From Candidatus Micrarchaeota archaeon (GTDB taxonomy: Archaea; Micrarchaeota; Micrarchaeia; Norongarragalinales; SBBD01): a DNA stretch of 64,000 nucleotides. Numbering within the stretch: the stretch's first letter is position 1; each line of letters opens with the position of its first letter. The notes under the pieces are model-generated. The model saw only the letters and a list, made by a program, of their open reading frames with translations, made no database searches and was not told where the DNA came from. The stretch covers positions 96,001 to 160,000 of the forward strand of contig JAHJQN010000004.1 in the NCBI GenBank assembly GCA_018819225.1. Reading direction: 5' to 3'. Position numbers and translations under genes: made by a program. Below, piece by piece: positions 7,134 to 24,868 of the stretch.

Positions 7134-9968
7134 TTCAAAAGATAAGCTTTTATTTGATAGATTAGAAATGCGCTTCCGAACGATCAGGGAGACAATGCCT
7201 ATAATGAAGAGAATCATGATGGGATGCCATTCCGGTGTTCGGCTTGAAACGATTCCGGTTCTTTGAATGTCGCAGGAATCGCTTCCGACCCCTGAAGAAG
7301 CACGGACTTCATAGTTTATGCTCAGTGGCGTGTCAACGATATACCTGAATACGTTTCCGTTTACTGCTTCCAATTGATGAGGAGCACCGCTTAAAACGAC
7401 GCCCGAACATGCTTTTCCTTCAACGATACATTGAACGGTTATGCGGGTATGATCGGACGCAGTAATGCGCGGGCAGGCTAGGGATAACACGCTTGCTTCT
7501 TGATATTCACCTGGCAACCCGCCATCTCCTCCCGGATCGGGTGTTGGCGTAATGGGTGGAGCGCCTGGTGGAAGAATGGTTATACTGGCTTCATCCGAAT
7601 CGGAAAGGCCGCCGTCATCCCACACCGTTAGTATAGCTAAACGAGTCGTTTCTTCCGTGCACATGACGTTAAACGTATCGGTTTGTTGTCCGTTCAAAAT
7701 GCAGTCGGTAGTATCATTTAATTCCCATAACCAGGCGACGATCGTTCCGTCCGGATCATGGGATGCACTTCCATCCACGTTGACATCAATGCCTACCCAC
7801 GTAAACACGTCTCCTCCTGCATTTGCAGAAGGAGGTATGTTTTCTCCACCGGGTGTAGCAGAAATGATCCATTGTTCTTGAAGATAATCGCTTTGAGATT
7901 CGTTATCCACGCACGTAGCATCTACCAGCCAAAGGCCTTCAAACAGTAATGGTACATCGGAGTGATCTAATACCCAAAAATCGGTTCCGGGTACTTGAAC
8001 CGCGTTGTCGTTGAAGACTTCTGAACTGGCAGGGTTTGTCATCGATAGCGTAACGAGGTCTAAAGCATTTTCTGGATCCGTGCATTCTGTCCGTGTTTGG
8101 TAAACGGTTTCTTCAAAAACAAGACTCGTGCAGTCCCCCCAATTTTCTGAACCCGTAGAATCGCATTCGATAGAGCTAATTATTGGAGGTAAGTTAGAGT
8201 TGATTTCCCAAACTTCGTCTCTGCTTGTGGTTTCAATGGGAAATCCGTGACATGTGGCTCTTAACCGCCAAGCCCCCCCTTTATCGACGGGAACATTTAG
8301 TCCCTGTAAGCTATAGAAGTCCCCCTCTTGTTGAGTATACCATCCGGAAGCGCGTTCGATCATGTCCGGATCAATCAATCGGAAATCTACGTAATCGACA
8401 CCCCAGTCTTCATCCGCACATTCCGCTCCCACTGCGGTAATCATTTCCATATACCGTGCATTCGTGCAATTAACGAATCCATCCCCTTCATCGCAAAGAA
8501 TGTCTCCGAGAACCAGGGGAATGTTTTCATTAAACCGTTGGGCAAGGACGCTCGTGGGGGGCAACCCATGGATGTCCGATCCTTTCTTGCCGAAACCCAT
8601 GATGACTCCCCCGCCGCTATCCGGAATCGATTTAACGCTTTGAAAACCAAATCCAGAGCTGTCCGTGGAAAGTATGATGTTTGGGTTCCATAACGGATCC
8701 TTAACGCCATTACTTAGGTATTTCGTTACATAATAGTATCGATCTGCCCCGATGGTTACGTCCGCATAATGAAGATAGACATCGTTTAACGAATCCATGG
8801 TGGCATCAATGCTCCAAGCAGAATCATCGATCGTCTTTAGCGTAGTCCATTCTGGAGCGATGGTTCCATTCGCCTGAACGCGCTGTAAAAATGTACGGCC
8901 ATGGTATCCTTGTCCATTGACGAACGTTTCGGTAGTCCTTCCAATATAGTAAAATCCATTTTCGTTATCTGGCAATATTTTTTCAATGAACCCCTTGTTT
9001 GGAAGCGTGAGGTCTATACCCGTACTTCCCCACACTGGAGCAGGTGAGCCATTCTCATCCAGCTTGAGGAAACGCACGCGGTATTCGCTTCCTGGTAATC
9101 GGTAGTTTATTCCAACATAAGTGTATCCGTCACTAGAACGCGCTATGTATGCAAATGATTGCCATTCCCAAGCCGGATTATGATTCTGAATCAAAAAACC
9201 TTCTGCCGGCCAGCCCACTTCAACATCTCCACTCCCGTCCAAACGAATCAAGTAGATTTTTCCATCTGAAGTATCATGCCATGAAACAAATACGCCTCCA
9301 TTCCCGTCGATGATGCCACCGGCCATTCCTGAATTAGAGTTAGGAGCGTATATCGATTCCTTGATTAACGTCCTGAATAAAACCGTTCCCGTCGGACTTA
9401 CTTTTAAGGCCCATAAATCAGCCACACTAGAACCTAGTTTTCCGCAATCACCAGAGTTTCGACAGCGAGTATAAACGACATAGAAGTTACCATCGGAATC
9501 CGTAAACATATCCTTCAAATAGTTTTTTCCTTCATCCGAGTTATGGATTCTGGTTTTTCCCCAAATAATATTTTCATTCCCATCCAATCGTGCAGCGTAC
9601 AGATTATAGTCATATCCATAAGCAGGCGGCACGTTTGTTGCCCAAACCATGTATACTCCATTTGCGCCATCACTCGCAGACATTAGCCCGTGGCTCCATG
9701 GAGAAAAGTTTACGTCAAGACTCCATAACGGTCTCCCAAAACTATTGAAATGATTTACAAAAGGTTGTGGATCCGCATAACCATTAACCGTTGCGTCATC
9801 CACCCATGTCACGAATGCGCCGCCGAGTCCGTCATCAGCGATTTGAACCGTCTGGCCGCGATGATCGGAGACTTCCCAACGATAGGCTCCATAGAGGTGT
9901 TGGATGGCTGCTTCAGAAGAACTGGAAACAAGCAGCAATACCATGGCGATTTTGAGTAAGTGGTTCAT
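7107..9968 (-). CDS. Large secreted surface protein (beta-propeller-like repeats, Cys-containing Ig-like repeats, PKD domain, PEF-CTERM-like anchor)
   Basis: signal peptide; DG.GG repeats; PPSANAG..DGSASHDPDG PKD motif; TPEW + TM + RKR tail. Confidence 0.8.
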   Translation of the reverse strand: MNHLLKIAMVLLLVSSSSEAAIQHLYGAYRWEVSDHRGQTVQIADDGLGGAFVTWVDDATVNGYADPQPFVNHFNSFGRPLWSLDVNFSPWSHGLMSASDGANGVYMVWATNVPPAYGYDYNLYAARLDGNENIIWGKTRIHNSDEGKNYLKDMFTDSDGNFYVVYTRCRNSGDCGKLGSSVADLWALKVSPTGTVLFRTLIKESIYAPNSNSGMAGGIIDGNGGVFVSWHDTSDGKIYLIRLDGSGDVEVGWPAEGFLIQNHNPAWEWQSFAYIARSSDGYTYVGINYRLPGSEYRVRFLKLDENGSPAPVWGSTGIDLTLPNKGFIEKILPDNENGFYYIGRTTETFVNGQGYHGRTFLQRVQANGTIAPEWTTLKTIDDSAWSIDATMDSLNDVYLHYADVTIGADRYYYVTKYLSNGVKDPLWNPNIILSTDSSGFGFQSVKSIPDSGGGVIMGFGKKGSDIHGLPPTSVLAQRFNENIPLVLGDILCDEGDGFVNCTNARYMEMITAVGAECADEDWGVDYVDFRLIDPDMIERASGWYTQQEGDFYSLQGLNVPVDKGGAWRLRATCHGFPIETTSRDEVWEINSNLPPIISSIECDSTGSENWGDCTSLVFEETVYQTRTECTDPENALDLVTLSMTNPASSEVFNDNAVQVPGTDFWVLDHSDVPLLFEGLWLVDATCVDNESQSDYLQEQWIISATPGGENIPPSANAGGDVFTWVGIDVNVDGSASHDPDGTIVAWLWELNDTTDCILNGQQTDTFNVMCTEETTRLAILTVWDDGGLSDSDEASITILPPGAPPITPTPDPGGDGGLPGEYQEASVLSLACPRITASDHTRITVQCIVEGKACSGVVLSGAPHQLEAVNGNVFRYIVDTPLSINYEVRASSGVGSDSCDIQRTGIVSSRTPEWHPIMILFIIGIVSLIVRKRISNLSNKSLSFERRGGDSNS

Positions 9969-10063
9969 GAACAAAGTATGAATTACGCCTAAATAAGCTT
10001 TGCTCTTCCATCAAAAAATAAGTAGACACAAGTAATTCTAAAGAGAAAAGGAACGGCGTTTGA

Positions 10064-10765
10064 TTACGCCTTCAAGCCGAGTCCTTGTCGGGTCAGTACG
10101 TACCTCGCGTCAATCCACAACGCGTTCACGGGAATCACGCTTACGAACCGGTGTAGCACCGTATTAACCACGATGAACGAACTGGTTATTCCTCCTGCAA
10201 ACATCAATCGTTCGAATGCGACGATGGGAATGAGTGCGGTCCAGAATGCAGCGGTTGTGGGAAAGGTATAAATCCAAACAACTCCACCAACCGAATGCGC
10301 GGTAAACGTGGCTCCCAGGGATCGCATGAACAAGTTTTCAGGCAGGAAACTCGCGATGACGGGTATCAACCAGTATAACGAGTAATACCAGGCTTCAGCG
10401 CCCACCGGATGCAATAAAAATGCGGCCATGGCTACAAGCGGTACGATTCGCGATATTTTGGCGGTTCGGGTCGCAAAATAGTATGCGGCAAACAACATGG
10501 GGGTTAACCGCATCAGGTTGACGAACGTCACGTCTTTTCCAAGCAATAGAAAACCGCCGATTTCCGCCAGCAATACGGAAGCTGCTCCAGCGATTGGACC
10601 TAAAAATCCGCCTGCAATCGGTCCGAGAAACTGAAACATCGTAAAGAATTGATTTTCAGCGCCTAAAACTTGGGAAAAATTGATTTGTTGGGCAATCAAT
10701 GCGGCGACGCCAAAAATCACTATAAACAGCACGCGCTTCCGACTATAAACCGTATTCCAATCCAC
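10064..10765 (-). CDS. Membrane protein resembling an ECF-type S component
   Basis: about 6-7 TMs; F.FLGPIAGGFLGP..GA motif. Confidence 0.5.
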   Translation of the reverse strand: MDWNTVYSRKRVLFIVIFGVAALIAQQINFSQVLGAENQFFTMFQFLGPIAGGFLGPIAGAASVLLAEIGGFLLLGKDVTFVNLMRLTPMLFAAYYFATRTAKISRIVPLVAMAAFLLHPVGAEAWYYSLYWLIPVIASFLPENLFMRSLGATFTAHSVGGVVWIYTFPTTAAFWTALIPIVAFERLMFAGGITSSFIVVNTVLHRFVSVIPVNALWIDARYVLTRQGLGLKA

Positions 10766-10816
10766 GCAAACCCACCCCCCTCGATACAATAAACAGTGCA
10801 GAAAACAAGAATGCTT

Positions 10817-11218
10817 TTACGGAGCAGATTTTAAAACTCTTTCTATCTCTTCCGCCAACTTAAAATACTCTTCAAACTTGTGCGAATAATCGTTTTTCCC
10901 TTTTATTCCGATTCCCTGGCTCCTCATTTTCCTAAGCAGACGCCGGTGTTGCTGAAGCGTTCCCAAAAGGTATACGTCAGTAGTGGGCTCGGAACAGTCC
11001 ACCGCATGAATGGAAACCGCCGCATCCCCTCCTACAGCTAACATTTCCTGTTTTAGGATGTTCGCCACCGCATTACGAACGCTTTTCAGAAATATTATTC
11101 GAAAAACAGCTTTGGGTGCCATGATTCGTGCACCACCCGCGGATGCCCGAGCATCCAGAAAGGCAGCGCAGGCTTCTTTCTCGTTTTCGAACGTTATTAG
11201 CTTTCCCTGATAGTCCAT
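10817..11218 (-). CDS. Stand-alone domain similar to the N-terminal extension of some dihydropteroate synthases
   Basis: GARIMAPKA, ANILKQEMLAVGGDAAV, TDVYLLGT..Q..RL motifs; no TIM barrel. Confidence 0.6.
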   Translation of the reverse strand: MDYQGKLITFENEKEACAAFLDARASAGGARIMAPKAVFRIIFLKSVRNAVANILKQEMLAVGGDAAVSIHAVDCSEPTTDVYLLGTLQQHRRLLRKMRSQGIGIKGKNDYSHKFEEYFKLAEEIERVLKSAP

Positions 11219-11355
11219 GGGTAATTATGCAGGATGCTAGTTAATTATTTAAAAAACAATGCCTCGAGGGCGTATCCACTAGAGATATGAGAAGCGGGAC
11301 CCCGCCCTTTTCCGAACGAATTCGAAAGAAGAGCGGGGCGCAATGGGTTTGCCTC

Positions 11356-11478
11356 CTAGTGAACGTCTCCATTCGGGGATTCGCGGTTAAAGAACCGCCA
11401 GAGAAACCATCCGGATGCAACAAATCCGATCATGATCACGGATGAAAACGCGCTGATAATCCAAGACGTAGCCTCCAT
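11356..11478 (-). CDS. Small single-TM protein, 40 aa (below the ORF track cutoff)
   Basis: MEATSWIISAFSSVIMIGFVASGWFLWRFFNRESPNGDVH*; purine-rich leader and TTTATAAA upstream. Confidence 0.55.
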   Translation of the reverse strand: MEATSWIISAFSSVIMIGFVASGWFLWRFFNRESPNGDVH

Positions 11479-11527
11479 GATTTTTTTCCACTTCCACTAT
11501 TTACGGGGGTTTATAAATATAATAGCA

Positions 11528-11546
11528 TGTCGTCATTCAACCGACA
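11528..11546. promoter_or_regulatory. Candidate operator TGTCG-N9-CGACA
   Basis: palindrome between the divergent promoters of the TrmB-like gene and the small ORF. Confidence 0.4.
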
Positions 11547-11579
11547 ACTTAAAAAATAACGACGTATATACAAATAAGT

Positions 11580-12353
11580 ATGTTAGAGGAGGATTTGATC
11601 GAACTGGGCCTCACCAAGAACGAAGCAAGAGTATACCTTTCGCTTCTGAAAAAGGGGCCGCTCACCGCCCACGAGATTTCCAACGCCTCGGGCATCTATC
11701 GGCCGTCGGTATACGATTGCCTGAATACGTTGATGGAGCAAGGTTTGACAAGTTACATTCTTGTCGAAGGAAAGAAACGTTTCCAGGCCGCGAACCCCCG
11801 TTCGTTGGAGGATTACTATGAACAACGTCTTCAGAAAGTGAAACAAGTGGTAGTCGAACTGTCAAAATTCTCTCCGAAAGAACGGGAAGTGGCGACCGTT
11901 GAAGTTTATCGGGGACGCAAGGCGTTGAAGAAAGCCTTCCGGGACATTCTGGTGGAATTAAAGCGAACCCGGGTGCCTCATTTGGGAATGGGCATTGACG
12001 ACTCCTACTTTATCAATGAGGATCCGTACTTCAGTGAATGGTTCATACGAAATTTGGAAAAACAAAACTTGAAAGAAAAGATGATCACGTTCGAGGGAGC
12101 AACGGGATTCGCTGGCGGAAAGACCACCGAATACCGATTTATTCCTCCGGAATTCTTCAATCCAACGAACATCCTGATTGACGGCAACTTGGTTACGATC
12201 ATCATTTGGACCGAGCCGCGATATGTCATTAAAATCCGCAGCAAACAGATCTCGGAATCGTACCGCAAACAGTTCGAGCTGATGTGGCGCGGAGGTAAGA
12301 AAATGAAGTGGACTCAATCGTTCAGGCAGCGGGTTCCTTTGAAGAACGCATAA
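11580..12353 (+). CDS. TrmB-family transcriptional regulator
   Basis: LGLTKNEARVYLSLL..G..TA.EIS..SGIYR.SVYD wHTH; C-terminal effector domain. Confidence 0.9.
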   Translation: MLEEDLIELGLTKNEARVYLSLLKKGPLTAHEISNASGIYRPSVYDCLNTLMEQGLTSYILVEGKKRFQAANPRSLEDYYEQRLQKVKQVVVELSKFSPKEREVATVEVYRGRKALKKAFRDILVELKRTRVPHLGMGIDDSYFINEDPYFSEWFIRNLEKQNLKEKMITFEGATGFAGGKTTEYRFIPPEFFNPTNILIDGNLVTIIIWTEPRYVIKIRSKQISESYRKQFELMWRGGKKMKWTQSFRQRVPLKNA

Positions 12354-13977
12354 ATACGCGGGTCATCCGCTTGCCAAGGTCTCCGACCCGTCGAATGGCA
12401 TTATGGAAGCGCCAGTTCGGTGGGTAATACAGTAGATGCCGGTTTCCCAGCCATCCAACAACCCCCAATTCTGATCGAAATTTTCTAAGTCTCTCTGTTT
12501 CGGATCCTCCTGCTGAAACAATGCTCTTATTCCCATCAGGCAATCGGTCATGTATCTTCTGGAGCGTGTGATAAACAAGTGCGGCTCCGGCTTGTCTGAC
12601 CATTTCACCCCCCAATCCCGCCGGAAGCTCCAATTTCGTTGGTGTAATCAATGCAATAGCGGCATATACGGGTCGCAATTGTTCTCGCTTTACCCATTCT
12701 TCTCGAGATTCTCCCAATCTTTTTTTTTCGCGTTTATCCGCGGTTGCATTCAATCGACTTCCAGTGACACCGAGTCCGCTTCGAGTTAACTCGGCAATCG
12801 TGTTTCGAAAAGGATGTCCACGAGGAAGATCTTCTCTTCGGAGTTCCCGGACGACGCCTGGACCAAAATACCCTATGTGTTCATAGGCCGCAAATCCGAA
12901 GGGAATGCGCCGATTCGATCGTCCTCGAGAACCGGTGTAGCTTAGGTAAACCATGTACAAGGGATGAGTTGCGGTTGATTTAAATCGAAGGTACATTTGG
13001 TGAGCTGCAATAGCCGTTCCAATATCTTCACCAGTTCTTCTGTGCATCTGAGGTGCCCATTGTTTGAGCACTTGAAGCGCGTCGGAACGATGTAGGTATG
13101 GATGGTAGTTTTCGACTCGAATCGCTACGCCCTTCGGCAATGAATTTCGAAATTCTTTCAATTTTCTAACGAGTGAGGGTTTTGGGGAAGTAAATACGTG
13201 TTCCAAAGAAATGAGCGGGGAAGCATACCGATCATCATCCATTGGCCATTTTCCATCCCACTTGTCCCCTCTACGATAATCCGTAAATCCCTGCTCCTTC
13301 GTCAACCTCAGTTCAAGAAATGGATTTGCTTTTTTTACGATGACCTTGTCTCGGGTCGACTTTCCGAGTTGTTCAGAAATAATTCGGGTTAGGGCAGCCA
13401 TGCGACGAGGTTTTCCCTCGGGGCTCAAAATGACGAAAGGAGCCCTATTGTGCTCTTTGGTCGCAATGATGAGGAATCCGTCACTGCCTCCATTGAGGAG
13501 GACGATCCATGGTCTTTCGCAGTGACGGGCGGCTTGCATTGCCCACAGAATCGAGCGGCCATAATGTGGGACAATCTGAGTTTTTTCAAGCCCCTCTTTT
13601 CTCAGTAATTTTTGGCTTAGGGAATAAACGTCTTCATTGGATAAAGGGCGTATCTCAACATTCGGCGTTTTACCCCGATTCTGATATATCGCCATACGGT
13701 TTTCAATGGACTCCGTGTTTTGCGACAAGATCTGCAAATGGTGTTCGTATGGTTTCATTCGTTGGGCTTCAATCGAAGCGGTGAGATGGACGGCTTCTTT
13801 CTCCCTATGTATATTTTCCAAATGCCTGATTTGATCCTGATGGGCTCTCAACTGTTTTTGAATTCTTCGTTCAATCCATTCCGGACTCCGCCCAACCAAA
13901 CGACGGGATTCCGTTACCGAATTCGGTATCCGGGTGGGCCACCTCCACTCTTCGTGTTTTTGCTTTTTCGGGGCCAT
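12322..13977 (-). CDS. Arg-rich protein with divergent DUF2156/aminoacyl-transferase (GNAT-like) region
   Basis: DDDRYASP, VENY......DAL.VLKQW, GGSET..LRKFR motifs. Confidence 0.5.
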   Translation of the reverse strand: MAPKKQKHEEWRWPTRIPNSVTESRRLVGRSPEWIERRIQKQLRAHQDQIRHLENIHREKEAVHLTASIEAQRMKPYEHHLQILSQNTESIENRMAIYQNRGKTPNVEIRPLSNEDVYSLSQKLLRKEGLEKTQIVPHYGRSILWAMQAARHCERPWIVLLNGGSDGFLIIATKEHNRAPFVILSPEGKPRRMAALTRIISEQLGKSTRDKVIVKKANPFLELRLTKEQGFTDYRRGDKWDGKWPMDDDRYASPLISLEHVFTSPKPSLVRKLKEFRNSLPKGVAIRVENYHPYLHRSDALQVLKQWAPQMHRRTGEDIGTAIAAHQMYLRFKSTATHPLYMVYLSYTGSRGRSNRRIPFGFAAYEHIGYFGPGVVRELRREDLPRGHPFRNTIAELTRSGLGVTGSRLNATADKREKKRLGESREEWVKREQLRPVYAAIALITPTKLELPAGLGGEMVRQAGAALVYHTLQKIHDRLPDGNKSIVSAGGSETERLRKFRSELGVVGWLGNRHLLYYPPNWRFHNAIRRVGDLGKRMTRVFMRSSKEPAA

Positions 13978-14093
13978 AACCCTTTTGATAATCTAATCCT
14001 ATATAATTCCAATTGAAAGAGTATCGTTCCCGATTGAAAAAAATAATTAACGCAAACAAGTAAAACAATTTAAACATGTATTCGTTATTGGCT

Positions 14094-14285
14094 TCATTGA
14101 GCTTTAGAGAGTTTGCGTTTTCTAATCCACATGACCAGCATTATTAAAAAAAATCCCGCCAGTACGGGTATTCCCCGGTCTCCCAACTCCCCCCGTAACG
14201 CGCTCCTCAACCCAAACCAAACCGCGAGAAAGAGCAGAATAACGCCTCCAAGCTTGAGGAGTGTAATGGGTGATTTATCTTTCAA
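14094..14285 (-). CDS. Small 2-TM protein
   Basis: two hydrophobic segments, basic tail. Confidence 0.55.
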   Translation of the reverse strand: MKDKSPITLLKLGGVILLFLAVWFGLRSALRGELGDRGIPVLAGFFLIMLVMWIRKRKLSKAQ

Positions 14286-14297
14286 TTATTTCGCCTT

Positions 14298-14957
14298 CTA
14301 TTTCCGGAAAACCGCCTTAATCTCACACCGACGGTGGGGCGTTCCATGAAATACGTGTTTATAGGCATCTAATGCCAACGATTCCATGTTGAAGCCTTCT
14401 CTCTGGAATGCCTCACGGACTTCCTTTTCTTCAAAATAATGAACCCAAACGTTATTTCCTTTACGGAATGTCCCCGGCTCCACTTCTTCCCCTTTTCCGC
14501 TGCGCAAATCCGTTCGCTCAAAACCCTTGAAGTAGCATAAGCCCCCGGGTTTCAAAACACGATAGGCTTCCGCAATAGCGGCCTCGCGTTCACTTAGATT
14601 AAGGTGTCCGACAATATGAAATAAGAAAACAACATCAAAAAAATTACGTTGAAAATTAAGTGTGCACAAATCGCCAACCGTGATATTCGCTTTTGCCTTG
14701 AATAATTTAGCTCGTTCTTTGGCTAAAGAAATAGCAGTTGGAGAAACATCAATGGCGTATAGCTCGAATCCTTTGTTGAATAGAGAGCTCAAATGTTTTC
14801 CATTGCCACACCCGACTTCGAGAATTCGGCTTCCTTCCGGTAGATCGAGTTTGAAATTCGTGGTTCCCCGCCATCTTCCTCTCCCCGACTTGTACTCTTT
14901 TTCCCAAGCATACACGTGATGCTTTGATAACGGACCAGAAGAATAGGGCAATGGCAT
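14298..14957 (-). CDS. Class I SAM-dependent methyltransferase
   Basis: ILEVGCGNGK, AIDVS, FDVV, RVLKPGG. Confidence 0.9.
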   Translation of the reverse strand: MPLPYSSGPLSKHHVYAWEKEYKSGRGRWRGTTNFKLDLPEGSRILEVGCGNGKHLSSLFNKGFELYAIDVSPTAISLAKERAKLFKAKANITVGDLCTLNFQRNFFDVVFLFHIVGHLNLSEREAAIAEAYRVLKPGGLCYFKGFERTDLRSGKGEEVEPGTFRKGNNVWVHYFEEKEVREAFQREGFNMESLALDAYKHVFHGTPHRRCEIKAVFRK

Positions 14958-14969
14958 TCCTCATCATCC

Positions 14970-15461
14970 TTATACCGGCCTGGCTTTTTTCCCCAACCGG
15001 GTTTGTAAACACTCGAACGTTGTCGGAACCGACAAATCAAGGTGAAATCGCTCAAAATCTTTTCCCTGTTTATCGGTGGATCGAAATCCCATTTGATGGA
15101 AGTGATCCATCAGTTTCGTATTAATCACCGGAATAGATGCATGGCGAATTCCTTGTTTCCGTAACCAATTAAATGATTCCAACCGCAGCTTGATTCGTAT
15201 CGTATTATCTCGAATTTGTTGGTGAATAAGTCGCGTGTCCATTCCCCCGCGACCGTTCGATTGAATGCGTGAAAAGGCTAGACCAATCATTCGATTACCC
15301 GAATAAGCGGCGTGAACGATGTTTTCTTTTTCCCTGAAATAAGATTCCGCTTCGTTGGGTAATACCGGTGCACCCGTGTCGCCGCTGAGAAATCGACGTA
15401 CTTGAGCTCGGTCTCTCTCGTTAAGTTTTTGGAGGGCTTGAATTTCATATCGTTCCGCCAC
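14970..15461 (-). CDS. GNAT-fold acetyltransferase-like protein with degenerate motif A
   Basis: VHAAYSGNRMIGLAF, WLRKQG, FHQMGF; paralog of 15887-16372 and 19348-19839. Confidence 0.6.
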   Translation of the reverse strand: MAERYEIQALQKLNERDRAQVRRFLSGDTGAPVLPNEAESYFREKENIVHAAYSGNRMIGLAFSRIQSNGRGGMDTRLIHQQIRDNTIRIKLRLESFNWLRKQGIRHASIPVINTKLMDHFHQMGFRSTDKQGKDFERFHLDLSVPTTFECLQTRLGKKARPV

Positions 15462-15484
15462 GGTTTGATCGCCTGCATTATTTG

Positions 15485-15838
15485 TTACGCTTTGGTAATT
15501 CGTTTAACGAGAACTTCAGGATTCACAAACGCATTTTTTTCGTTGTCGAAATACGTCTGAACCGCTTTTTCGCCCACACTCTTGAAAAACGAGTCCCAGG
15601 CATCCGCATACTCCGGTTTCAATCCAGCTTTTTTCATCTTAGGAAGTTCTTCGGGGAGAAACGGAGTCAATATTACAGAGGCGTTCTCCAAATCCGTCGC
15701 GGAAGGCTTCCGAGCGAATACGCCACGCGATTTCACATCGAACTCGAACCCTTTTTCCGTAAATATGGCTTGCAATGTTTTCGCAACTGCATTACTGGAA
15801 ATGCCGTGATCGCAAACCACGAGGATTTCTTTGTTCAT
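15485..15838 (-). CDS. PTS EIIB/LMW-PTP-like Cys P-loop protein
   Basis: ILVVCDHGISS, ..DV.S.G, LENASVILTP. Confidence 0.6.
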   Translation of the reverse strand: MNKEILVVCDHGISSNAVAKTLQAIFTEKGFEFDVKSRGVFARKPSATDLENASVILTPFLPEELPKMKKAGLKPEYADAWDSFFKSVGEKAVQTYFDNEKNAFVNPEVLVKRITKA

Positions 15839-15886
15839 GATATTATAGATACATGGGTGTTCAAATGCTTTTCCTCCGGATTAATT

Positions 15887-16372
15887 TCAAGGAAATTTTC
15901 TTACGCGTTGTTCAACGTGCGCCCATTCCGCTGCATTTCCAATAGGTATGTCGAAGCGTTTTTGGGCGGGATTAACGGATTCCGTTCTTTCCGGAAATCC
16001 GGACAAGCGAAGACTCCGGATAATGCGGTTGTTTTCCACGCGACGAATGCTGGCAGTTTTTGCTCCGCGATTCCGTAACCCGTTTAAAGTGGATAAAAAC
16101 AATCGGTTCCCAATGTTTCGATATCGTTCGCTGGGCTCAACCAATACGTACGACAAACGACCCCGTTCCTTATTTATGCTGGTTAACGCGAATCCCACGA
16201 TTCGACCTCCCCTAAAAGCGGCATGAATGAACCGATTAGGTGACGAAAAGAATGCTTTGACCGATCGCTCCGAAACCGCGTGTTCGCGTTCCGATTTCAA
16301 CAAATCGAGAATTTGTTTCCGGTGACCCTGGTCCAAGTGCTGCAATTCACGGAATTTCACAAGTTTCGGCAT
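15887..16372 (-). CDS. GNAT acetyltransferase
   Basis: GRIVGFA, YVLVEPSERYRNIGNRL (motif A), LSGF. Confidence 0.75.
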   Translation of the reverse strand: MPKLVKFRELQHLDQGHRKQILDLLKSEREHAVSERSVKAFFSSPNRFIHAAFRGGRIVGFALTSINKERGRLSYVLVEPSERYRNIGNRLFLSTLNGLRNRGAKTASIRRVENNRIIRSLRLSGFPERTESVNPAQKRFDIPIGNAAEWAHVEQRVRKFP

Positions 16373-16403
16373 GATCTCACTTCTTTTTTCGACATATTAG
16401 CTA

Positions 16404-16943
16404 TTATAATCGTTCCATTCGATGTTGCAATAAACCAATTTTTTTCCTTAATATGCGTAGTGCTATGCTGGTAAGCGGAACTCCGCCTCCTTGATCAAAT
16501 CCGCCGCCACCTTCAGGTTCCTCGGTTCGAAACGCAAATCCCTTTTTCTGTGCAGCCAGTGTTGAAAGAACGCCTACATCTTGGGGACCAAATGTCTCGG
16601 ATTTCCAACCATTTGCCACGAATCTAAAATGGCTGGCGGGAAAATGACCTTTTTGGTGGGGATGTGGTTCAAGTGATAGGGTAAGTCGGACTTTGTCGCC
16701 TAAATCCCCTTCAACACGGTGAGTAAGCCCACCCGTATGAACGGCACGGATCTGGTTAGACTCTTCAAATAAGTGCAATACGACTTCTCTTACTCGTCCA
16801 GGGGCCGTAACCCTTGGAAGAACGCGCAATAGCGTTCTGCGGACATTATGCAAATCCCCTTCCCGAATCTTTTCGTGATGGGTCGATAGCACTCGATCAA
16901 CGAATCCTTCCCATTCCCTCGATTTAGGTGTTGATTTAACCAT
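16404..16943 (-). CDS. Hypothetical protein (family X)
   Basis: paralog of the disrupted 17491-18029 gene (STHH.KIR.GD, EG.LGD..RLTL, GGGVP). Confidence 0.65.
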   Translation of the reverse strand: MVKSTPKSREWEGFVDRVLSTHHEKIREGDLHNVRRTLLRVLPRVTAPGRVREVVLHLFEESNQIRAVHTGGLTHRVEGDLGDKVRLTLSLEPHPHQKGHFPASHFRFVANGWKSETFGPQDVGVLSTLAAQKKGFAFRTEEPEGGGGFDQGGGVPLTSIALRILRKKIGLLQHRMERL

Positions 16944-17463
16944 TTCTATTACCGTTCCTTTTGGTACTAACTTGCAACTTGCCTTGTTTTTTCAATGCTC
17001 GAATAATCTCCTTGACCAGTAGCTTCGGATCCTTATAACCAGAAGCGTCTCTCACCGAAAAAAATCCGGGTCTGTCAACAAAAAATAAGTATGGAATTTC
17101 GGGGTGAGAAAGAACGAATTCGGGATAGTTTTTGTACATGCCGGGTTTTTTTTTCTTTCGCTTGAATTCTCGACCATTTTCCGGAGTTCTTTTTTTTGGT
17201 AAGGGTCCGATAATGACATTCGGGTTTCCGATGTCCGGCCAAATTCGATCGCGATGTGAGTATATTGCAGAAGAAATGGGAAGGTAGCGGGCTCGGACGT
17301 TATGACCTTGTTTAGTAAAATGGGCATTCAATTCCCTCGATATTTGGCTACTGCGGTCTCCAGCCAAGCAAACGACTACGACGTCCTTCTGGGGCTGCCC
17401 CGCTCCATAGGGATCTTGCCTAAAAAATTCAACTGGTTTATGGTATAGCTTTTTTATTGGCAT
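16936..17463 (-). CDS. PTS EIIB/LMW-PTP-like protein
   Basis: VVVVCLAGDRSS..SR.LN..F..QGHNV. Confidence 0.5.
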   Translation of the reverse strand: MPIKKLYHKPVEFFRQDPYGAGQPQKDVVVVCLAGDRSSQISRELNAHFTKQGHNVRARYLPISSAIYSHRDRIWPDIGNPNVIIGPLPKKRTPENGREFKRKKKKPGMYKNYPEFVLSHPEIPYLFFVDRPGFFSVRDASGYKDPKLLVKEIIRALKKQGKLQVSTKRNGNRNG

Positions 17464-17473
17464 TCAATCACTT

Positions 17474-17491
17474 GTTATTAATTGTATGAAC
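17474..17491 (-). repeat. 18-bp junction palindrome, copy A (GTTCATA-CAAT-TAATAAC)
   Basis: overlaps a TAG stop, followed by AAGTGA SD-like sequence and ATG at 17463. Confidence 0.7.
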
Positions 17492-18029
17492 TAATCTGCT
17501 TGTCTGGCCGTCTGTATTAAATCAGAAATTATTTTCTACATCTTCATTAAAGCTAAACGCTTACCAGGGACTCCTCCGCCCGGATCCATCGTATCTATCA
17601 ATGATCCCACAATTTCGTAATTTGTAATATCTTTCGGGCGCGCTAGCGAAAAGTGAATTCCCATATCGCGGTCTTCAAAATGTTCTCTATTCCATCCTTC
17701 AGTTACCCAATGAATGCCCATGCGGGCGTGCAGCGGTTTGCTTCCTTCACGAGAAACGAATAGAGTCAAACGCATATTATCGCCCAGGTTCCCTTCAATA
17801 CGCATTTTTCGACCGCCAAAGCTCACTGCGCGTACCCGATTTGATTTTTTAAATAAACTGCGAATAAAGCCTCTCTAGCAAAAACGGGTTCTTGGGCATG
17901 TTGTATTACGCGGATGAGTTCGCGCTGTACATGGTTTTGGTCTCCTGATCGAATTTTATCATGATGAGTGCTAACGTATCGGCGTATGTATTCTTCATTT
18001 TCTGATTCGCGAGGCCTTGGCATAACCAT
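17491..18029 (-). pseudogene. Disrupted family-X paralog
   Basis: frameshift near 17826 and in-frame TAG at 17536-17538; frame continues KIISDLIQTARQAD to TAG at 17491-17493. Confidence 0.7.
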
Positions 18030-18035
18030 CCAGCT

Positions 18036-18497
18036 TTACTTATGTCCCGGCACTAATTTTAGGTGTTCCGCTATACTCCACCACAATTCATGCATGGGCA
18101 CTAAATCGCCCCCTTTTACCATAAACGGAAATATGGGCCGATTCCCGGCTTCCGTTACTAACAACTTCCAGTTTTTTGCGTATTCTACGGCCCCTTTGTC
18201 ACGTTGGAGCCGTAAAGATTTCTCTGCGAGAGAAAGAATTTCCGATCGATCCGAAGGAGTCACGAATGCATCGGCTTTTTGTATATACTCTCGTCGACGA
18301 GCTTCTGACAAGCGTTGTAACGGAATGACAAATACCCGAACGGGATGATTCGCCAAATCAAATCGAATTTGCAATAATCGTTTAATATAACCACTGCGCG
18401 TCCCATGGTCGCATACTACTGCAACGTGTTTTTCGAGGAGTCCTTCCACGAATCGTGCGCGTTCCCTTCCTTTCTTCGATAAATGAAGGCTCATCAT
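18036..18497 (-). CDS. PTS EIIB/LMW-PTP-like protein
   Basis: VAVVCDHGTRSG, IQKADAFVTP. Confidence 0.5.
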   Translation of the reverse strand: MMSLHLSKKGRERARFVEGLLEKHVAVVCDHGTRSGYIKRLLQIRFDLANHPVRVFVIPLQRLSEARRREYIQKADAFVTPSDRSEILSLAEKSLRLQRDKGAVEYAKNWKLLVTEAGNRPIFPFMVKGGDLVPMHELWWSIAEHLKLVPGHK

Positions 18498-19123
18498 TCC
18501 AATGTCCCGCGATTTTTTTGTTCGGAGGGTATTACAACCCAGAAAGTCCCGCGTCGTGTATACGGGTCCCTGTGCACGTGAAGGCGGGCTTTTTCCGCCT
18601 TAATGGCCTGCTTCAAATCCCTTTGAATTGGTTTCTGGGATTCCAAAAAATTCTCAGGAACCAGGAACCGGGTGTTCATTAATCGGGCAACGCGTATAGC
18701 GGTTTGGAATCCGGTCACGCGCCATCGCTGGTACTCTTTCGGAAGACCCCGAGGAAGCGGGAAAGCGTAGTGTTTCGAGTGGCCCTGCACTCCAACGAGT
18801 CGGAGCATTGACGGGTTTTCGCTTGATTCCCGCATCCGTTTGAATACGAGGTGGAGACTTCCGATGGAACCCAGGTGCCGCGAGGCCGGACCGTGCGGGT
18901 GAACATGAGCCCCGGATTTTTCGTGGGCATGAAAATGTTCGGCTCGAGGGAAGATGAGGATGGGTGCGAAGCGTCCCTGCTCCAATCCTTTCACGTTCTC
19001 GTATGAAACGGTGACTAGATTGCCTTTTCGGGCTACGCGCCATTCACCGTCGGAGTGCTCGAAATTGCCTCGTTTATAAGCCCACGCGTGCCGGGCCAAG
19101 TCATTTGGAGAGAAAGCGGTCAT
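18494..19123 (-). CDS. Hypothetical basic protein
   Basis: 209-aa ORF, SD-like AGGCGA, translationally coupled to the next gene. Confidence 0.6.
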   Translation of the reverse strand: MTAFSPNDLARHAWAYKRGNFEHSDGEWRVARKGNLVTVSYENVKGLEQGRFAPILIFPRAEHFHAHEKSGAHVHPHGPASRHLGSIGSLHLVFKRMRESSENPSMLRLVGVQGHSKHYAFPLPRGLPKEYQRWRVTGFQTAIRVARLMNTRFLVPENFLESQKPIQRDLKQAIKAEKARLHVHRDPYTRRGTFWVVIPSEQKNRGTLE

Positions 19124-19139
19124 GACCGAATTCGCCTAC

Positions 19140-19328
19140 TTACCCTTTGTTTTTACTTTGCAGAACGGCGAGATTTCTCATTCCTTTACACACATGCAGG
19201 GTATTTCCCGAAATCGGATTGCTCGTTAATTCCACTTCAGTGATTGCGTCAAGAATTCTCACTTGGACGTCGCCTCCATGCCGTTTAGGACCTCTAACGT
19301 AAACAACAATTGCCGCCACATTATTCAC
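19140..19328 (-). CDS. Small hypothetical protein
   Basis: fills the gap directly after repeat copy B. Confidence 0.4.
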   Translation of the reverse strand: MNNVAAIVVYVRGPKRHGGDVQVRILDAITEVELTSNPISGNTLHVCKGMRNLAVLQSKNKG

Positions 19329-19330
19329 TT

Positions 19331-19348
19331 GTTCTTATGAATATGAAC
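19331..19348 (-). repeat. 18-bp junction palindrome, copy B (GTTCATA-TTCA-TAAGAAC)
   Basis: overlaps the TAG of the GNAT gene, followed by AAGTGA. Confidence 0.75.
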
Positions 19349-19839
19349 TAAATGGATAGGATTTTTTCCCATGATCTCTTATTCTGAAGTGGGATATAAA
19401 ATGAGACCTCAGGAGTGTCTGGTGTTTTAATCTTTCGAAACCCTAGTGAAGTCAGCTTTGCGATGATTGCTGGCCTATAGACAGGGACGAACGCCTGTTT
19501 GACCCCCCTTTTCCTTAGCCAATCCAAACTATTACGAAACAATTGCCTTCCAACTCCCAAATACCGATGGGCTTCTGCAACATAACCAAAATAGACTATT
19601 GGTTTAGGCGGATCGCCGATTCGTGAGAAAGCGACGCCCACCAATTTTCCATCGACTCGTGCGGTATGAACTGCATGATCCGTTCCATCAAAGAAATCGG
19701 ACGCATTACTGAATCCGGAGACTTCATAGGGACCTATCCAACGCTCGCCTCGATCTGCTGCTTTCAATAAGTCCTCAACCTCCAATCTGTTTCGGAGACT
19801 CAAGTTATGGAGTTTTTCGTATTCAACCATTTTTACCAT
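19348..19839 (-). CDS. GNAT acetyltransferase
   Basis: DGKLVGVA, YVAEAHRYLGVGRQL, LTSLGF. Confidence 0.8.
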   Translation of the reverse strand: MVKMVEYEKLHNLSLRNRLEVEDLLKAADRGERWIGPYEVSGFSNASDFFDGTDHAVHTARVDGKLVGVAFSRIGDPPKPIVYFGYVAEAHRYLGVGRQLFRNSLDWLRKRGVKQAFVPVYRPAIIAKLTSLGFRKIKTPDTPEVSFYIPLQNKRSWEKILSI

Positions 19840-20119
19840 TTATACCATCTCGCTATAACGTCTGTTTTCAAACCATCAACTCATCCATCATCTTAATATA
19901 GCCAATCCCTTTTTTTATCATTTTTGATTTCTTTGCCTTTGGAGGAAGCGTTTAGGCAAGCCCCCATGGCCCCAATTTCCCCCAGCACATTAAAATGATG
20001 AAACCACCATATCAAAACCTCCAAACCCTCGTTTTTCCGGTTCCATCATCCCAAGAAAACGACTTGCGTACATCACCTCGTTATATTGCTACGTTGTTAA
20101 TATTAGGCAAAGAGGTCGC

Positions 20120-20266
20120 TTATTTTTTCTTCGAGATGGGGGTTAAACTATTCATTTCTTTTTCAATTTTTTCAAGCGTGTTATTTATTCTCTTTAATTG
20201 AACTTCAACAGCCGAAATCAACCACCCGAATAAAAGAACGGAGAGCAGGGCTAACAAGTCATTCAT
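20120..20266 (-). CDS. Small TM plus coiled-coil protein, 48 aa (not in ORF track)
   Basis: MNDLLALLSVLLFGWLISAVEVQLKRINNTLEKIEKEMNSLTPISKKK*; GGTGGTGA SD after repeat C. Confidence 0.6.
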   Translation of the reverse strand: MNDLLALLSVLLFGWLISAVEVQLKRINNTLEKIEKEMNSLTPISKKK

Positions 20267-20279
20267 TATTCACCACCTT

Positions 20280-20297
20280 GTTCTTACCCATACGAAC
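20280..20297 (-). repeat. 18-bp junction palindrome, copy C (GTTCGTA-TGGG-TAAGAAC)
   Basis: 3 bp after TAA, before the SD. Confidence 0.8.
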
Positions 20298-20300
20298 CAC

Positions 20301-20888
20301 TTATTTTATGTTATGGGATCGTTTAAACATTTCCGCGCATTTCTCCAACAACTTCCTTTGTCTAGGGTTAAGGGCGATGTGAGAGTTTAAGGGAAGGGCG
20401 GCGATACGGCGCGCGAGATGTTCCATGAACGGGTACTCGTTGGGAGACAAAGCGGTTTTATTGCGCGTTTGGCCAGTAGGATCGTTGGAAAAGTATTCGA
20501 TTCGAGCTCCGCGGCCGCCAGGCGATCGCGTCCACTTGTGTTCAACCCGGAAATAATGGCGGCCCACACCAAATTGGTTTCTACGGCTTCGGTCGGGCAA
20601 AGTCACGGGCTGAGTTGATGCGGGTGAATTCCAGGAACGAAAATCCTGAATGACGATGTCCACGCCTTTAGTATGGAGGACGACAAGACCCGTGATCCCC
20701 ATGCCAGGATAATTGGAACCGTCCGCTTGCTTGAATTGGAAATCCGCTTGAAAACCCGTTTTTCCTACAAGACCTTCGAACCGGTGAGCTTTAAACACGA
20801 GTTTTTCGGGAAGCGCAAGTTCACGCATCTCTTGAAGGTGAGGCAAACGAGATCGTTCCAAACCCTTATTTTCTTTGTTCATACCCAT
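20301..20888 (-). CDS. Hypothetical basic protein
   Basis: start codon lies inside repeat D. Confidence 0.6.
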   Translation of the reverse strand: MGMNKENKGLERSRLPHLQEMRELALPEKLVFKAHRFEGLVGKTGFQADFQFKQADGSNYPGMGITGLVVLHTKGVDIVIQDFRSWNSPASTQPVTLPDRSRRNQFGVGRHYFRVEHKWTRSPGGRGARIEYFSNDPTGQTRNKTALSPNEYPFMEHLARRIAALPLNSHIALNPRQRKLLEKCAEMFKRSHNIK

Positions 20889-20894
20889 ACGAAC
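20877..20894 (-). repeat. 18-bp junction palindrome, copy D (GTTCGTA-TGGG-TATGAAC)
   Basis: immediately after TGA; identical to copy E. Confidence 0.8.
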
Positions 20895-21278
20895 TCACGT
20901 TTTTTCCTTGATATGATAGAAACGATTCGGAACCGAATAATCCCTGCGAAGCCATTTCCTTAAAATCCGCTTCCCCCATTCAGGGTTACTTTTTTTCGTT
21001 ATTTCTATCTTCGTCCTTTGCACACCGCTGCGATCCACGAGCAACAACAAATCCAGCTTGATTGGGTCCTCACCGCGGACCAACTGCAACTTACCAGTAT
21101 CGAGCTCGACGAATTTCTTTAACCTCCGCACAGCTTCCCCTTCTCCGTGCGCCGCGTTCATCACCGTGAAGTCTAAGGGGTGAAACGGAACCACGATGTG
21201 GCCATCTTCATGCAATTTGAAGGGAATGCGTTTCTGATCCAACAACTTTCCGATCTTTTCTAAAGGGCGTTCTTGCAT
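20895..21278 (-). CDS. Hypothetical protein (family Y)
   Basis: 127 aa; helix plus beta-hairpin N-terminus shared with three neighbours. Confidence 0.6.
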   Translation of the reverse strand: MQERPLEKIGKLLDQKRIPFKLHEDGHIVVPFHPLDFTVMNAAHGEGEAVRRLKKFVELDTGKLQLVRGEDPIKLDLLLLVDRSGVQRTKIEITKKSNPEWGKRILRKWLRRDYSVPNRFYHIKEKT

Positions 21279-21291
21279 AAAAAACCACCTC

Positions 21292-21309
21292 GTTCATACC
21301 CATACGAAC
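21292..21309 (-). repeat. 18-bp junction palindrome, copy E (GTTCGTA-TGGG-TATGAAC)
   Basis: 6 bp after TGA, followed by GAGGTGG SD. Confidence 0.8.
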
Positions 21310-21315
21310 CATTTT

Positions 21316-21684
21316 TCATTTTCGTTCTTGAATGATAATAAAATTCTTTTTTCCTACTGCAGCATGCATAACGTTTACTTCTCGTCCGTGAGCCCCTAAA
21401 TTCATTACTAACCGAAGCAGGTAGCGGTGCACATTGGGAAATTCTTGCCCATATTTTCCCAATTCGACATTCGTGCGAACAGATCGCGTAAAGACCTTGA
21501 CTGCTTCAGGAGTTACGGGACGTAGCCCAAGAATTTCTGCATCAGCATGAACAGCTAAAGAAATGAGTCTTTCAGTATTATTAGGGGTAAAAGGAATGCT
21601 TAAGCCCTTGCCGACCCAATGATGTTGCACACCAACACGACTAAATACTCGTGAGAGAAGCAATGAAGCGGATTCACGAACCAT
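21316..21684 (-). CDS. Hypothetical protein (family Y)
   Basis: 122-aa ORF in the array. Confidence 0.55.
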   Translation of the reverse strand: MVRESASLLLSRVFSRVGVQHHWVGKGLSIPFTPNNTERLISLAVHADAEILGLRPVTPEAVKVFTRSVRTNVELGKYGQEFPNVHRYLLRLVMNLGAHGREVNVMHAAVGKKNFIIIQERK

Positions 21685-24424: not shown

Positions 24425-24709
24425 TCACCTTTTTTTGCGGTGCTTGTGGTGTTTGGAATGATGGGACAACGCATTCCACTGATGCAAGACCATAATATGA
24501 TTACCCAGATCGTTTAAGTGATGCGTTCGCACCGTTTTGTGAGCGGAACGTGCAGGCGTTTTTCCTTGAGGCTTCAATCGAACGTGCCCGTCGGACCAAG
24601 CGGCCATTAGAGCGGATAAGGCTTTTCCTAACGGAATGCTTTCCTCGGCACATTTGGCTTTGAATTTCCGAAAAGCTCCTTCCTCCAAATTCCGAAACGT
24701 CGCGTCCAT
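24425..24709 (-). CDS. Ribbon-helix-helix-like protein with His-rich tail
   Basis: TFRNLEE.AFRKFKAKCAEE...LG.AL..LM..W. Confidence 0.55.
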   Translation of the reverse strand: MDATFRNLEEGAFRKFKAKCAEESIPLGKALSALMAAWSDGHVRLKPQGKTPARSAHKTVRTHHLNDLGNHIMVLHQWNALSHHSKHHKHRKKR

Positions 24710-24868
24710 CCGGATCACCTCGAGCATACAAATACTATAACGAAAGCAAGTATTACTAATATGCGAACGCAAACTCATTATATAAAGGTTGCGGTATGAG
24801 TGTGGTTTGATTATCCAAACGTTTATAATCGTGGACCGGCAAGAAGAAGATACTTTTTATTTGAGTTT

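Follow-up and report, generated by a model that had tools for sequence, protein, structure and literature searches.

Palindromes at a replichore pole punctuate a candidate gene-cassette array in Norongarragalinales archaea

Why should an array of co-oriented genes in a tiny archaeal genome carry copies of one 18-bp palindrome at its gene junctions? We examined this in a Candidatus Micrarchaeota archaeon (order Norongarragalinales; GCA_018819225.1), using a 64,000-nucleotide stretch of contig JAHJQN010000004.1 (positions 96,001 to 160,000, hereafter the window). An earlier note, made from the sequence alone, had described five such sites (GTTCRTA-N4-TAWKAAC) and suggested that they are recombination sites for an unknown recombinase that inserts or shuffles gene cassettes, with mRNA hairpins or repeated operators as alternatives. 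The observation was confirmed. The interpretation was partly supported: comparative evidence for cassettes was strong, but no recombinase was found, and the note had missed that the sites surround a conserved core at a replichore pole, which opens a chromosome-biology explanation of comparable weight.

We first asked whether the sites exceed chance. All five were found on the minus strand with 0 mismatches, and at up to 2 mismatches there were 14 matches, against a chance mean of 2.4 and a maximum of 8 in 100 shuffles. In the whole 1.37-Mb genome (G000 in our numbering) these five were the only exact copies. A weight matrix trained without them scored four at 22–24.5 bits, level with one solo copy on the contig we labelled C1, while site A scored 14–15.5 bits. 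SD-like RAG(G)TG followed four of the sites. Three details of the note required correction. The TAG at site A is a second in-frame stop, 14 codons after the premature stop of a split paralog that is 36–40% identical to 16943–16404. The two proposed decayed copies were not supported, as 16384–16401 scored −8.2 bits and 20070–20085 is the left TATAAC box of a separate conserved non-coding element. Finally, over 167 sites the arms are 8 bp with a 2-bp centre, GTTCATAY-NN-RTATGAAC, rather than 7 bp with a variable 4-bp centre.

We next asked whether the locus occurs elsewhere. Clusters of sites were found in many genomes of the Norongarragalinales, whereas about 350 other genomes of the class had only scattered singletons. 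The locus is essentially single-copy and has three parts: the clustered palindromes, a conserved non-coding core of ~160 bp that the note did not report, and, in most families but not this one, a small predicted ribbon-helix-helix (RHH) gene ending at the first site. Fold matches for this gene were only weak (Z 2–3 to TraM, Arc, NikR and MatP). The RHH gene was single-copy in 31 of 60 relatives, and a site lay within about 100 bp of its 3' end in 14 of 19 loci not selected for the motif. Genus g28 (genera are numbered here) has the core and RHH gene without sites. Scans of homologous loci with Rfam and ARAGORN returned no RNA family or tRNA hit. Literature searches found no description of the locus.

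Features of the array and its surroundings; coordinates are those of the window, and offsets are distances (bp) from the upstream stop codon
Coordinates	Strand	Feature	Observations
21316..21684	-	122-aa orphan ORF ahead of site E	
21292..21309	-	18-bp site E	24.5 bits; offset +6, after the 122-aa ORF; followed by GAGGTG
20895..21278	-	127-aa orphan, candidate single-gene cassette between sites E and D	no homolog among 5.8 billion proteins of similar length
20877..20894	-	18-bp site D	24.5 bits; offset 0, abuts the TGA of the 127-aa ORF; supplies the ATG of the 195-aa ORF
20301..20888	-	195-aa orphan, candidate single-gene cassette between sites D and C	
20280..20297	-	18-bp site C, last site before the core	22.0 bits; offset +3, after the 195-aa ORF
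20120..20266	-	48-aa small hydrophobic ORF between site C and the core	
19894..20048	-	Conserved non-coding core element	~160 bp; fixed-spacing boxes TRTAAC, SGTTWCAY, TATTGT, GCCTAA, AAAAGAA, CGTTAYA; flanking TATAAC/GTTATA boxes extend it to about 19850–20085
19348..19839	-	GNAT acetyltransferase between the core and site B	paralogs at 15887–16372 and 14970–15461
19331..19348	-	18-bp site B	offset −1, overlaps the TAG of the GNAT gene
17492..19328	-	Multi-gene segment between sites B and A	62-aa, 209-aa and 153-aa ORFs, and a split paralog (18029–17823, 17826–17536) of 16943–16404
17474..17491	-	18-bp site A (weakest)	offset −1, overlaps an in-frame TAG behind the split paralog
12322..17463	-	Downstream tail of the co-oriented array without recognisable sites	175, 179, 161, 117 and 163 aa ORFs, methyltransferase, 551-aa ORF; partly shared with family relatives
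8000..20000	.	Approximate zone in which silent-site AT skew changes sign (replichore pole)	

The locus lies at one of the two replichore poles of G000, either origin or terminus, and on a skew switch in three further genomes (G005, G026 and G040). The switch was weak or absent in G032 and G036, and sampling in G016 was noisy. Gene-orientation bias was nil and skew polarity differed among families. A TCACGTG motif at the opposite pole was dispersed and specific to this family, so it does not settle polarity.

The position of the sites relative to genes was far from random. Within this family 42 of 63 sites, and elsewhere 49 of 102, lay within −22 to +15 of a sense stop, against 4.8 and 7.2 in controls. 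In this family the gene-proximal arm is the variable one upstream of the core (32 against 6), although this asymmetry was absent outside the family. Genome G003 has 14 sites in 6.6 kb, bounding single genes and HicAB-, VapBC- and RelBE-like pairs (named by sequence resemblance, not by Pfam), with no site inside a pair. A locus found through an unrelated protein had the order RHH-site-gene-site-Fic-site-core-FokI-like nuclease, with offsets of 0, 0 and 14. Toxin-antitoxin and defence genes recur among the cargo.

We then asked whether gene order changes at the sites. Shared genes kept their next neighbour in 1 of 13 comparisons across a site and in 13 of 16 without one, a tally transcribed by hand and confounded by toxin-antitoxin linkage. 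In the closest pair (89% identical) homology ran through an identical 18-mer and stopped at its last base. This is the only clean breakpoint, and one case (G003 versus G006 after the VapC-like gene) did not fit the rule that the arm travels with the gene. No excision joint, circle or strain indel was seen in two read runs, one likely the source run and one of low depth, compared as contigs only, which is no evidence of absence. An identical (100%) ENA contig offered no strain comparison. Viral contigs gave scattered matches, nearly all single, and no homology to the arrays. Some arrays also appear static: 25 of 127 spacings were under 120 bp, and the layout was conserved across three species of genus g16, which looks like selection on the sites themselves.

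No recombinase of any tested family was linked or universal. PF00589 was found in 23 of 41 genomes, was missing in many array genomes including the near-complete G016, and never lay beside a site, although a very diverged enzyme cannot be excluded. The only PF00589 gene in G000 (1226–2146) is 15 kb away with no site nearby, and 30 integrase loci of relatives carried no site. In searches of five genomes each, resolvase exceeded the cut-off in two, Cas1 was present in one (110 kb away) and Y1 in one (on another contig), while reverse transcriptase and IS110 transposases were likewise patchy or absent. The central dinucleotide was identical in 17% of neighbouring sites against 9% between loci, contrary to the matching centres expected of serine-recombinase sites. 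Neither the genome's tyrosine recombinase nor TrmB, both named in the note as candidate partners, is an order-wide partner.

The reading we favour, with moderate confidence only, is that the palindromes are the joints of a gene-cassette array built around a fixed chromosomal platform at one replichore pole. The analysis itself establishes that the platform (core, site cluster and usually an RHH gene) is order-wide and essentially single-copy, that it sits on the skew switch in the four genomes named above, that sites abut stop codons, that site-bounded single genes and toxin-antitoxin pairs change neighbours between genomes, and that the site is read as double-stranded sequence rather than as a hairpin. 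The mechanism is inferred. In this view a dimeric protein would bind each palindrome (the RHH protein where present, an unidentified protein in this family), and a recombinase encoded elsewhere, on the chromosome or on passing mobile elements, would exchange strands in or at the end of the invariant TATGAAC arm. A module would thus run from that arm through SD, gene and stop to the variable GTTCRYR arm and centre. Inserting a circular module at an existing site would lengthen the array by one gene and one site, genes would be expressed from read-through, and matching centres would not be required. Lineages would differ in activity, with genus g4 dynamic, g16 static, and several keeping sites with no gene between them.

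The main rival, which we consider possible but less likely, is that the palindromes are chromosome-organising binding sites (SegB-, parS- or matS-like, or accessory boxes of an origin) clustered around the core and bound by the RHH protein or a substitute. Site-plus-SD units would then be copied by duplication or gene conversion, intergenic DNA trimmed in a compact genome, and genes turned over in a plastic region by ordinary recombination. In its favour, there is one cluster per genome at a skew switch, and no strong site was found in about 1.3 Mb of other sequence from six relatives. In genus g30 a site covers the RHH start codon, as for autoregulated centromere-binding proteins, and SegB is itself an RHH protein whose palindromes cluster at its own locus near oriC1 (bioRxiv 10.1101/2025.02.07.637068). 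Gene-free site clusters, static arrays and the lack of a recombinase also fit. However, the RHH gene was not found in this family, which has the longest and cleanest arrays. An RHH-like gene at 24425–24727 is not a linked substitute, as its G005 homolog is 75 kb from the array. A 140-aa winged-helix gene lies near the core in several families but occurs across Micrarchaeota in unrelated contexts, gave only non-significant MarR-like hits in a fold search, and is not a required part. No ParA-like partner was seen among the recurring neighbours, and no ParB exceeded the cut-off. Nor does this model predict one site per gene or per toxin-antitoxin pair, gene-oriented arm asymmetry, or homology ending at the last base of a site.

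It is unlikely that the sites are ordinary operators or transcription roadblocks, through RHH autoregulation or the neighbouring TrmB. They are palindromic and recognised as double-stranded DNA, a site covers the RHH start in g30 and lies 50 bp upstream in genome G027, and TrmB flanks the array in four genomes of this family. Yet the sites follow stop codons of unrelated, fast-turning genes and occur in gene-free runs, no regulon was found elsewhere in the genome, TrmB linkage is limited to this family, and the RHH gene is missing from it. Still less likely are mRNA hairpins that cut or tune a polycistronic transcript. The position between stop and SD and a possible 7–8-bp stem with a short loop would allow them, but across 167 distinct sites Watson-Crick pair counts equalled the expectation from column frequencies at every position, with no compensatory change and many A-A, T-T and G-A mismatches, and inverted and gene-free copies exist. 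Chance matches or tandem duplication of paralog ends, conditions under which the note would have abandoned its reading, are refuted, since although the array holds paralog families (three GNATs and a duplicated two-gene unit), the motif is far above background, the genes ahead of the five sites are not homologous to each other, and the sites are conserved across the order with unrelated cargo.

A more far-reaching reading is not excluded but remains doubtful. Here, the chromosome's own origin or terminus locus would double as a cassette platform, forming a new class of gene-capture system in DPANN archaea. Palindromes bound by a chromosome-organising protein would be recombined by an enzyme outside the known tyrosine, serine, HUH, DEDD and Cas1 families, and the whole platform (core, sites, RHH or winged-helix gene) could also travel in defence islands.

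These findings make two questions testable. Our searches found no description of where these DPANN archaea start or end replication, and a single-copy core on the skew switch in several families is a precise candidate, with its boxes and candidate binding proteins named. Known cassette systems depend on tyrosine recombinases, and an order-wide array with an 18-bp site, toxin-antitoxin and defence cargo and no such enzyme would point to unknown recombination chemistry, and to how streamlined archaea gain orphan genes. Even under the main rival, this is an undescribed centromere- or matS-like system in DPANN.

How does the locus compare with known systems? Like CRISPR arrays and REP/RAYT elements it has short palindromic repeats in tandem, some only 20–50 bp apart, but spacing ranges from 21 to 2418 bp and is mostly gene-sized rather than 30–40 bp, the repeats vary, Cas1 and Y1 enzymes are unlinked and mostly absent, and there is no hairpin covariation. 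Like an archaeal oriC it has a single-copy non-coding element with inverted boxes at a skew switch, including a GTTCCA-like box followed by a G run. However, it has no canonical ORB and no AT-rich unwinding element in the core, and cdc6 lies 57 kb to over 300 kb away; ORB-like TTCCAG boxes lie instead upstream of cdc6, where skew does not switch.

Set beside the SegB centromere-like sites of Sulfolobales (bioRxiv 10.1101/2025.02.07.637068) and bacterial parS/ParB and matS/MatP, the locus likewise has palindromes clustered at a pole-associated locus, in most families next to a predicted RHH gene. The motif here is different, and whereas SegB sites are mostly inside genes and scattered over the chromosome, these sites are intergenic, confined to a few kb, and punctuate mobile-looking genes. 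The pdif/dif modules of Acinetobacter and Xer-dependent elements integrating at chromosomal dif (PMC6449649, PMC12907356, PMC13141974) share short sites with a variable centre, bounding modules that include toxin-antitoxin pairs and are shuffled by a recombinase encoded elsewhere, which here is only inferred, and possibly a link to the terminus. However, dif is 28 bp (11-6-11) and needs XerC/D or XerA, whereas here information is confined to 18 positions (8-2-8, mostly one orientation), the flanks carry at most 0.33 bit, and no tyrosine recombinase is universal.

Integron cassette arrays, including archaeal integrons and CALINs (bioRxiv 10.1101/2022.02.06.479319), differ in several respects. 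The attC site is a 55–141-bp RYYYAAC...GTTRRRY foldback, and no such pair was found in gene direction within 200 bp of any of the five stops. The site here is instead a fixed 18-bp GTTC...GAAC palindrome without covariation, no IntI was found by the PF00589 search, and the array straddles a conserved non-coding core at a replichore pole and, in most families, starts at an RHH gene. Like integron arrays, however, it consists of co-oriented promoterless single genes and toxin-antitoxin pairs, each followed by a site just after the stop, with shuffled order, an inferred crossover at the 3' end of the site, no adjacent recombinase, and GNAT, toxin-antitoxin and defence cargo of the types reported for archaeal integron cassettes.

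The five 18-bp sites reported in the earlier note are present exactly as it described them. All five are perfect matches on the minus strand, and the window contained 14 matches at up to two mismatches against 2.4 expected by chance. They are the only exact copies in the 1.37-Mb source genome (G000). A weight matrix trained on relatives ranked four of the five, together with one solo copy on contig C1, at the top of the genome, whereas shuffled genomes gave 0-2 hits at 20 bits or more. The sites lie +6, 0, +3, -1 and -1 bp from the stop codons ahead of them. Site A follows a second in-frame stop behind a split paralog, within an old tandem duplication of a two-gene unit in which the upstream copy of the second gene is split by a premature stop. 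The note's suggestion of two further, decayed copies is not supported.

The exact motif occurred in 14 of 40 relatives and a looser form in 26, usually as one cluster. In contrast, in about 350 genomes of other orders of the class we found only scattered singletons, at the level of the reversed-pattern control. About 1.3 Mb of sequence outside the locus in six relatives held no strong site. From 167 distinct copies, the consensus is GTTCATAY-NN-RTATGAAC, with flanks that carry little information. Base-pair counts equalled the expectation from column frequencies at every position; thus, the site is recognised as sequence, most simply as double-stranded DNA by a dimer. These copies were selected with the motif itself, which inflates the conservation but does not create the lack of covariation. 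The centres differ between neighbouring sites.

We investigated how the sites are placed relative to genes. In six relatives (G003, G005, G006, G007, G009 and G010) and two groundwater contigs, sites separate single genes and toxin-antitoxin-like pairs, and do not split a pair. Of the sites in the family of the source genome, 42 of 63 lie at a sense-strand stop, as do 49 of 102 elsewhere, against about 5 and 7, respectively, for displaced controls. Shared genes nearly always changed their next neighbour across a site (12 of 13) and seldom where there was none (3 of 16), although the second group is mostly toxin-antitoxin pairs. As kin are not independent, the p-values calculated in these analyses overstate. 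In the closest pair, homology covers the whole downstream site and ends at its last base. In this family, upstream of the core, the gene-proximal arm is the variable one. The relative G001 has an array at the same address as the window, with mostly different cargo. Against a cassette arrangement, a fifth of spacings hold no gene, and genus g16 is static across three species. Three loci contain runs of 7-8 sites with few or no genes between them, many of them 38-58 bp apart.

Clustering of neighbouring genes showed a small ribbon-helix-helix (RHH)-like protein in 12 array loci. Its gene is single-copy in 31 of 60 relatives, and 14 of 19 loci found through it alone have a site within about 100 bp of its 3' end. 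In genus g30, an 18-bp site supplies the start codon of the RHH gene, which is thus flanked by sites on both sides. The gene was not found in G000, and in its family appeared only as one weak, unlinked hit. The fold of the protein resembles RHH proteins only weakly as a monomer. A non-coding core of ~160 bp lies inside every array of this family examined, including that in the window. An iterated profile found the core beside the sites or the RHH gene in about 30 loci across the order, several only weakly, and also in genus g28, which lacks the sites.

G000 has a second copy of this platform, in which a core and the solo 18-bp site are accompanied by several shorter TTTCATA-GA-TATGAAA variants. 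It lies next to a winged-helix gene, inside an island with a type IIG restriction-modification gene, an HNH nuclease and an HTH-peptidase/DUF4411 pair, and a small skew dip occurs here. The uncharacterised winged-helix family, of ~140 aa, has at least 268 members, named mostly as Micrarchaeota, with no Pfam family, and is patchy in this order. A metagenome contig reached through an unrelated winged-helix protein shows the complete order RHH, site, gene, site, Fic, site, core, FokI-like nuclease. The metagenome defence island L249 holds RHH, three sites, core, Fic, FokI-like nuclease, winged-helix, D12 methyltransferase and a DEAD/PLD helicase, and its Fic gene is 59% identical to one in G000.

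Locations of the array features and of associated loci. Window, the 64,000-nucleotide stretch; G, genome; C, contig of that genome; L, sequence of an individual locus.
Feature	Genome or sequence	Location
Non-coding core of the array	Window	19894-20048
Old tandem duplication of a two-gene unit	Window	16404-18497
Tyrosine recombinase gene	Window	1226-2146
Solo 18-bp site	G000	C1:13135
Second copy of the platform	G000	C1:12869-13152 (L077:9870-10153)
Member of the ~140-aa winged-helix family (alignment A5)	L077	8941-9378
Broad sign change of silent-site AT skew	G000	C2:104-120 kb
Sharp sign change of silent-site AT skew	G000	C6:67-70 kb
AT-rich gap at the opposite skew pole	G000	C6:69711-70404 (L210:9712-10405)
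AT-rich gap at the opposite skew pole	G005	C1:88.3-88.7 kb
TTCCAG boxes upstream of cdc6	G000	C2:57.7-58.0 kb (L211:7700-8050)
Fic gene 59% identical to that of L249	G000	C2:14.7-15.6 kb
Metagenome defence island	L249	2171-6405
Site supplying the RHH start codon, genus g30	L090, L093, L095, L096	L090:7713; L093:6981; L095:334
Runs of 7-8 sites	L033, L022, L069	L033:942-1464; L022:9742-10580; L069:9672-11043
Two cdc6 genes	G016	C1:437 kb and 1103 kb
Array	G016	C1:761 kb

We next analysed the chromosomal position of the locus. Silent-site AT skew in G000 changes sign twice, broadly around the array and sharply on contig C6. Contig-end overlaps, with two joins assumed, gave a circle with replichores of about 677 and 695 kb and a consistent A-rich strand from the array to C6. 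Contig C4 of this genome, of 27 kb, has repeated ends shared with C2 and C3 and may be an integrated or excisable element, while C2 and C7 end in a CRISPR-like array next to cas1. The locus also sits on a skew switch in G005, G040 and G026, but weakly or not at all in G032 and G036, and the opposite pole of G005 matches that of G000. The opposite pole holds an AT-rich gap with repeated parS-like TCACGTG boxes, next to a tRNA and a Hef-like helicase gene. The same 14-bp motif is dispersed (10-20 copies) in most genomes of this family, is at control level in other families, and in G000 avoids about 190 kb on either side of the array. That the locus is an origin is suggested by G-rich strands leading away from it in G005 and G040, and by the rRNA and ribosomal-protein operon of G000, which point away from it. 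That it is a terminus is suggested by classical polarity in G000 and G026, by the accessory cargo, and by the AT-rich gap with parS-like boxes at the other pole. We consider these two possibilities nearly even. Four co-oriented TTCCAG boxes lie upstream of cdc6 in G000, but there is no skew switch there, perhaps reflecting autoregulation rather than an active origin. In G016, the two cdc6 genes lie almost symmetrically about the array.

No recombinase that is linked to the arrays or universal among their carriers was found among those searched for, and no joint was seen in contig data; this is the main gap. The only tyrosine recombinase of G000 is a 306-aa protein with a C-terminal zinc ribbon, encoded beside a doubtful tRNA-Ser call, with no 18-bp site near it.

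The best reading of these data, which we regard as about as likely as not, is a pole-anchored cassette array whose joints are these palindromes, with crossover in the invariant arm by an enzyme acting in trans. The clustering of sites, their placement at stop codons, the core and the changes of neighbours rest on direct comparison of sequences, whereas the crossover, the enzyme, binding of the palindromes by a protein and a role as origin or terminus are inferred. The proposal in the earlier note that the sites may be recombination sites for gene cassettes is partly supported. The main rival, which is possible but less favoured, is a centromere- or matS-like site cluster in a plastic region. 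We found no description of such a locus in the literature searched. The array works like an integron or pdif array, but fails the defining tests of both.
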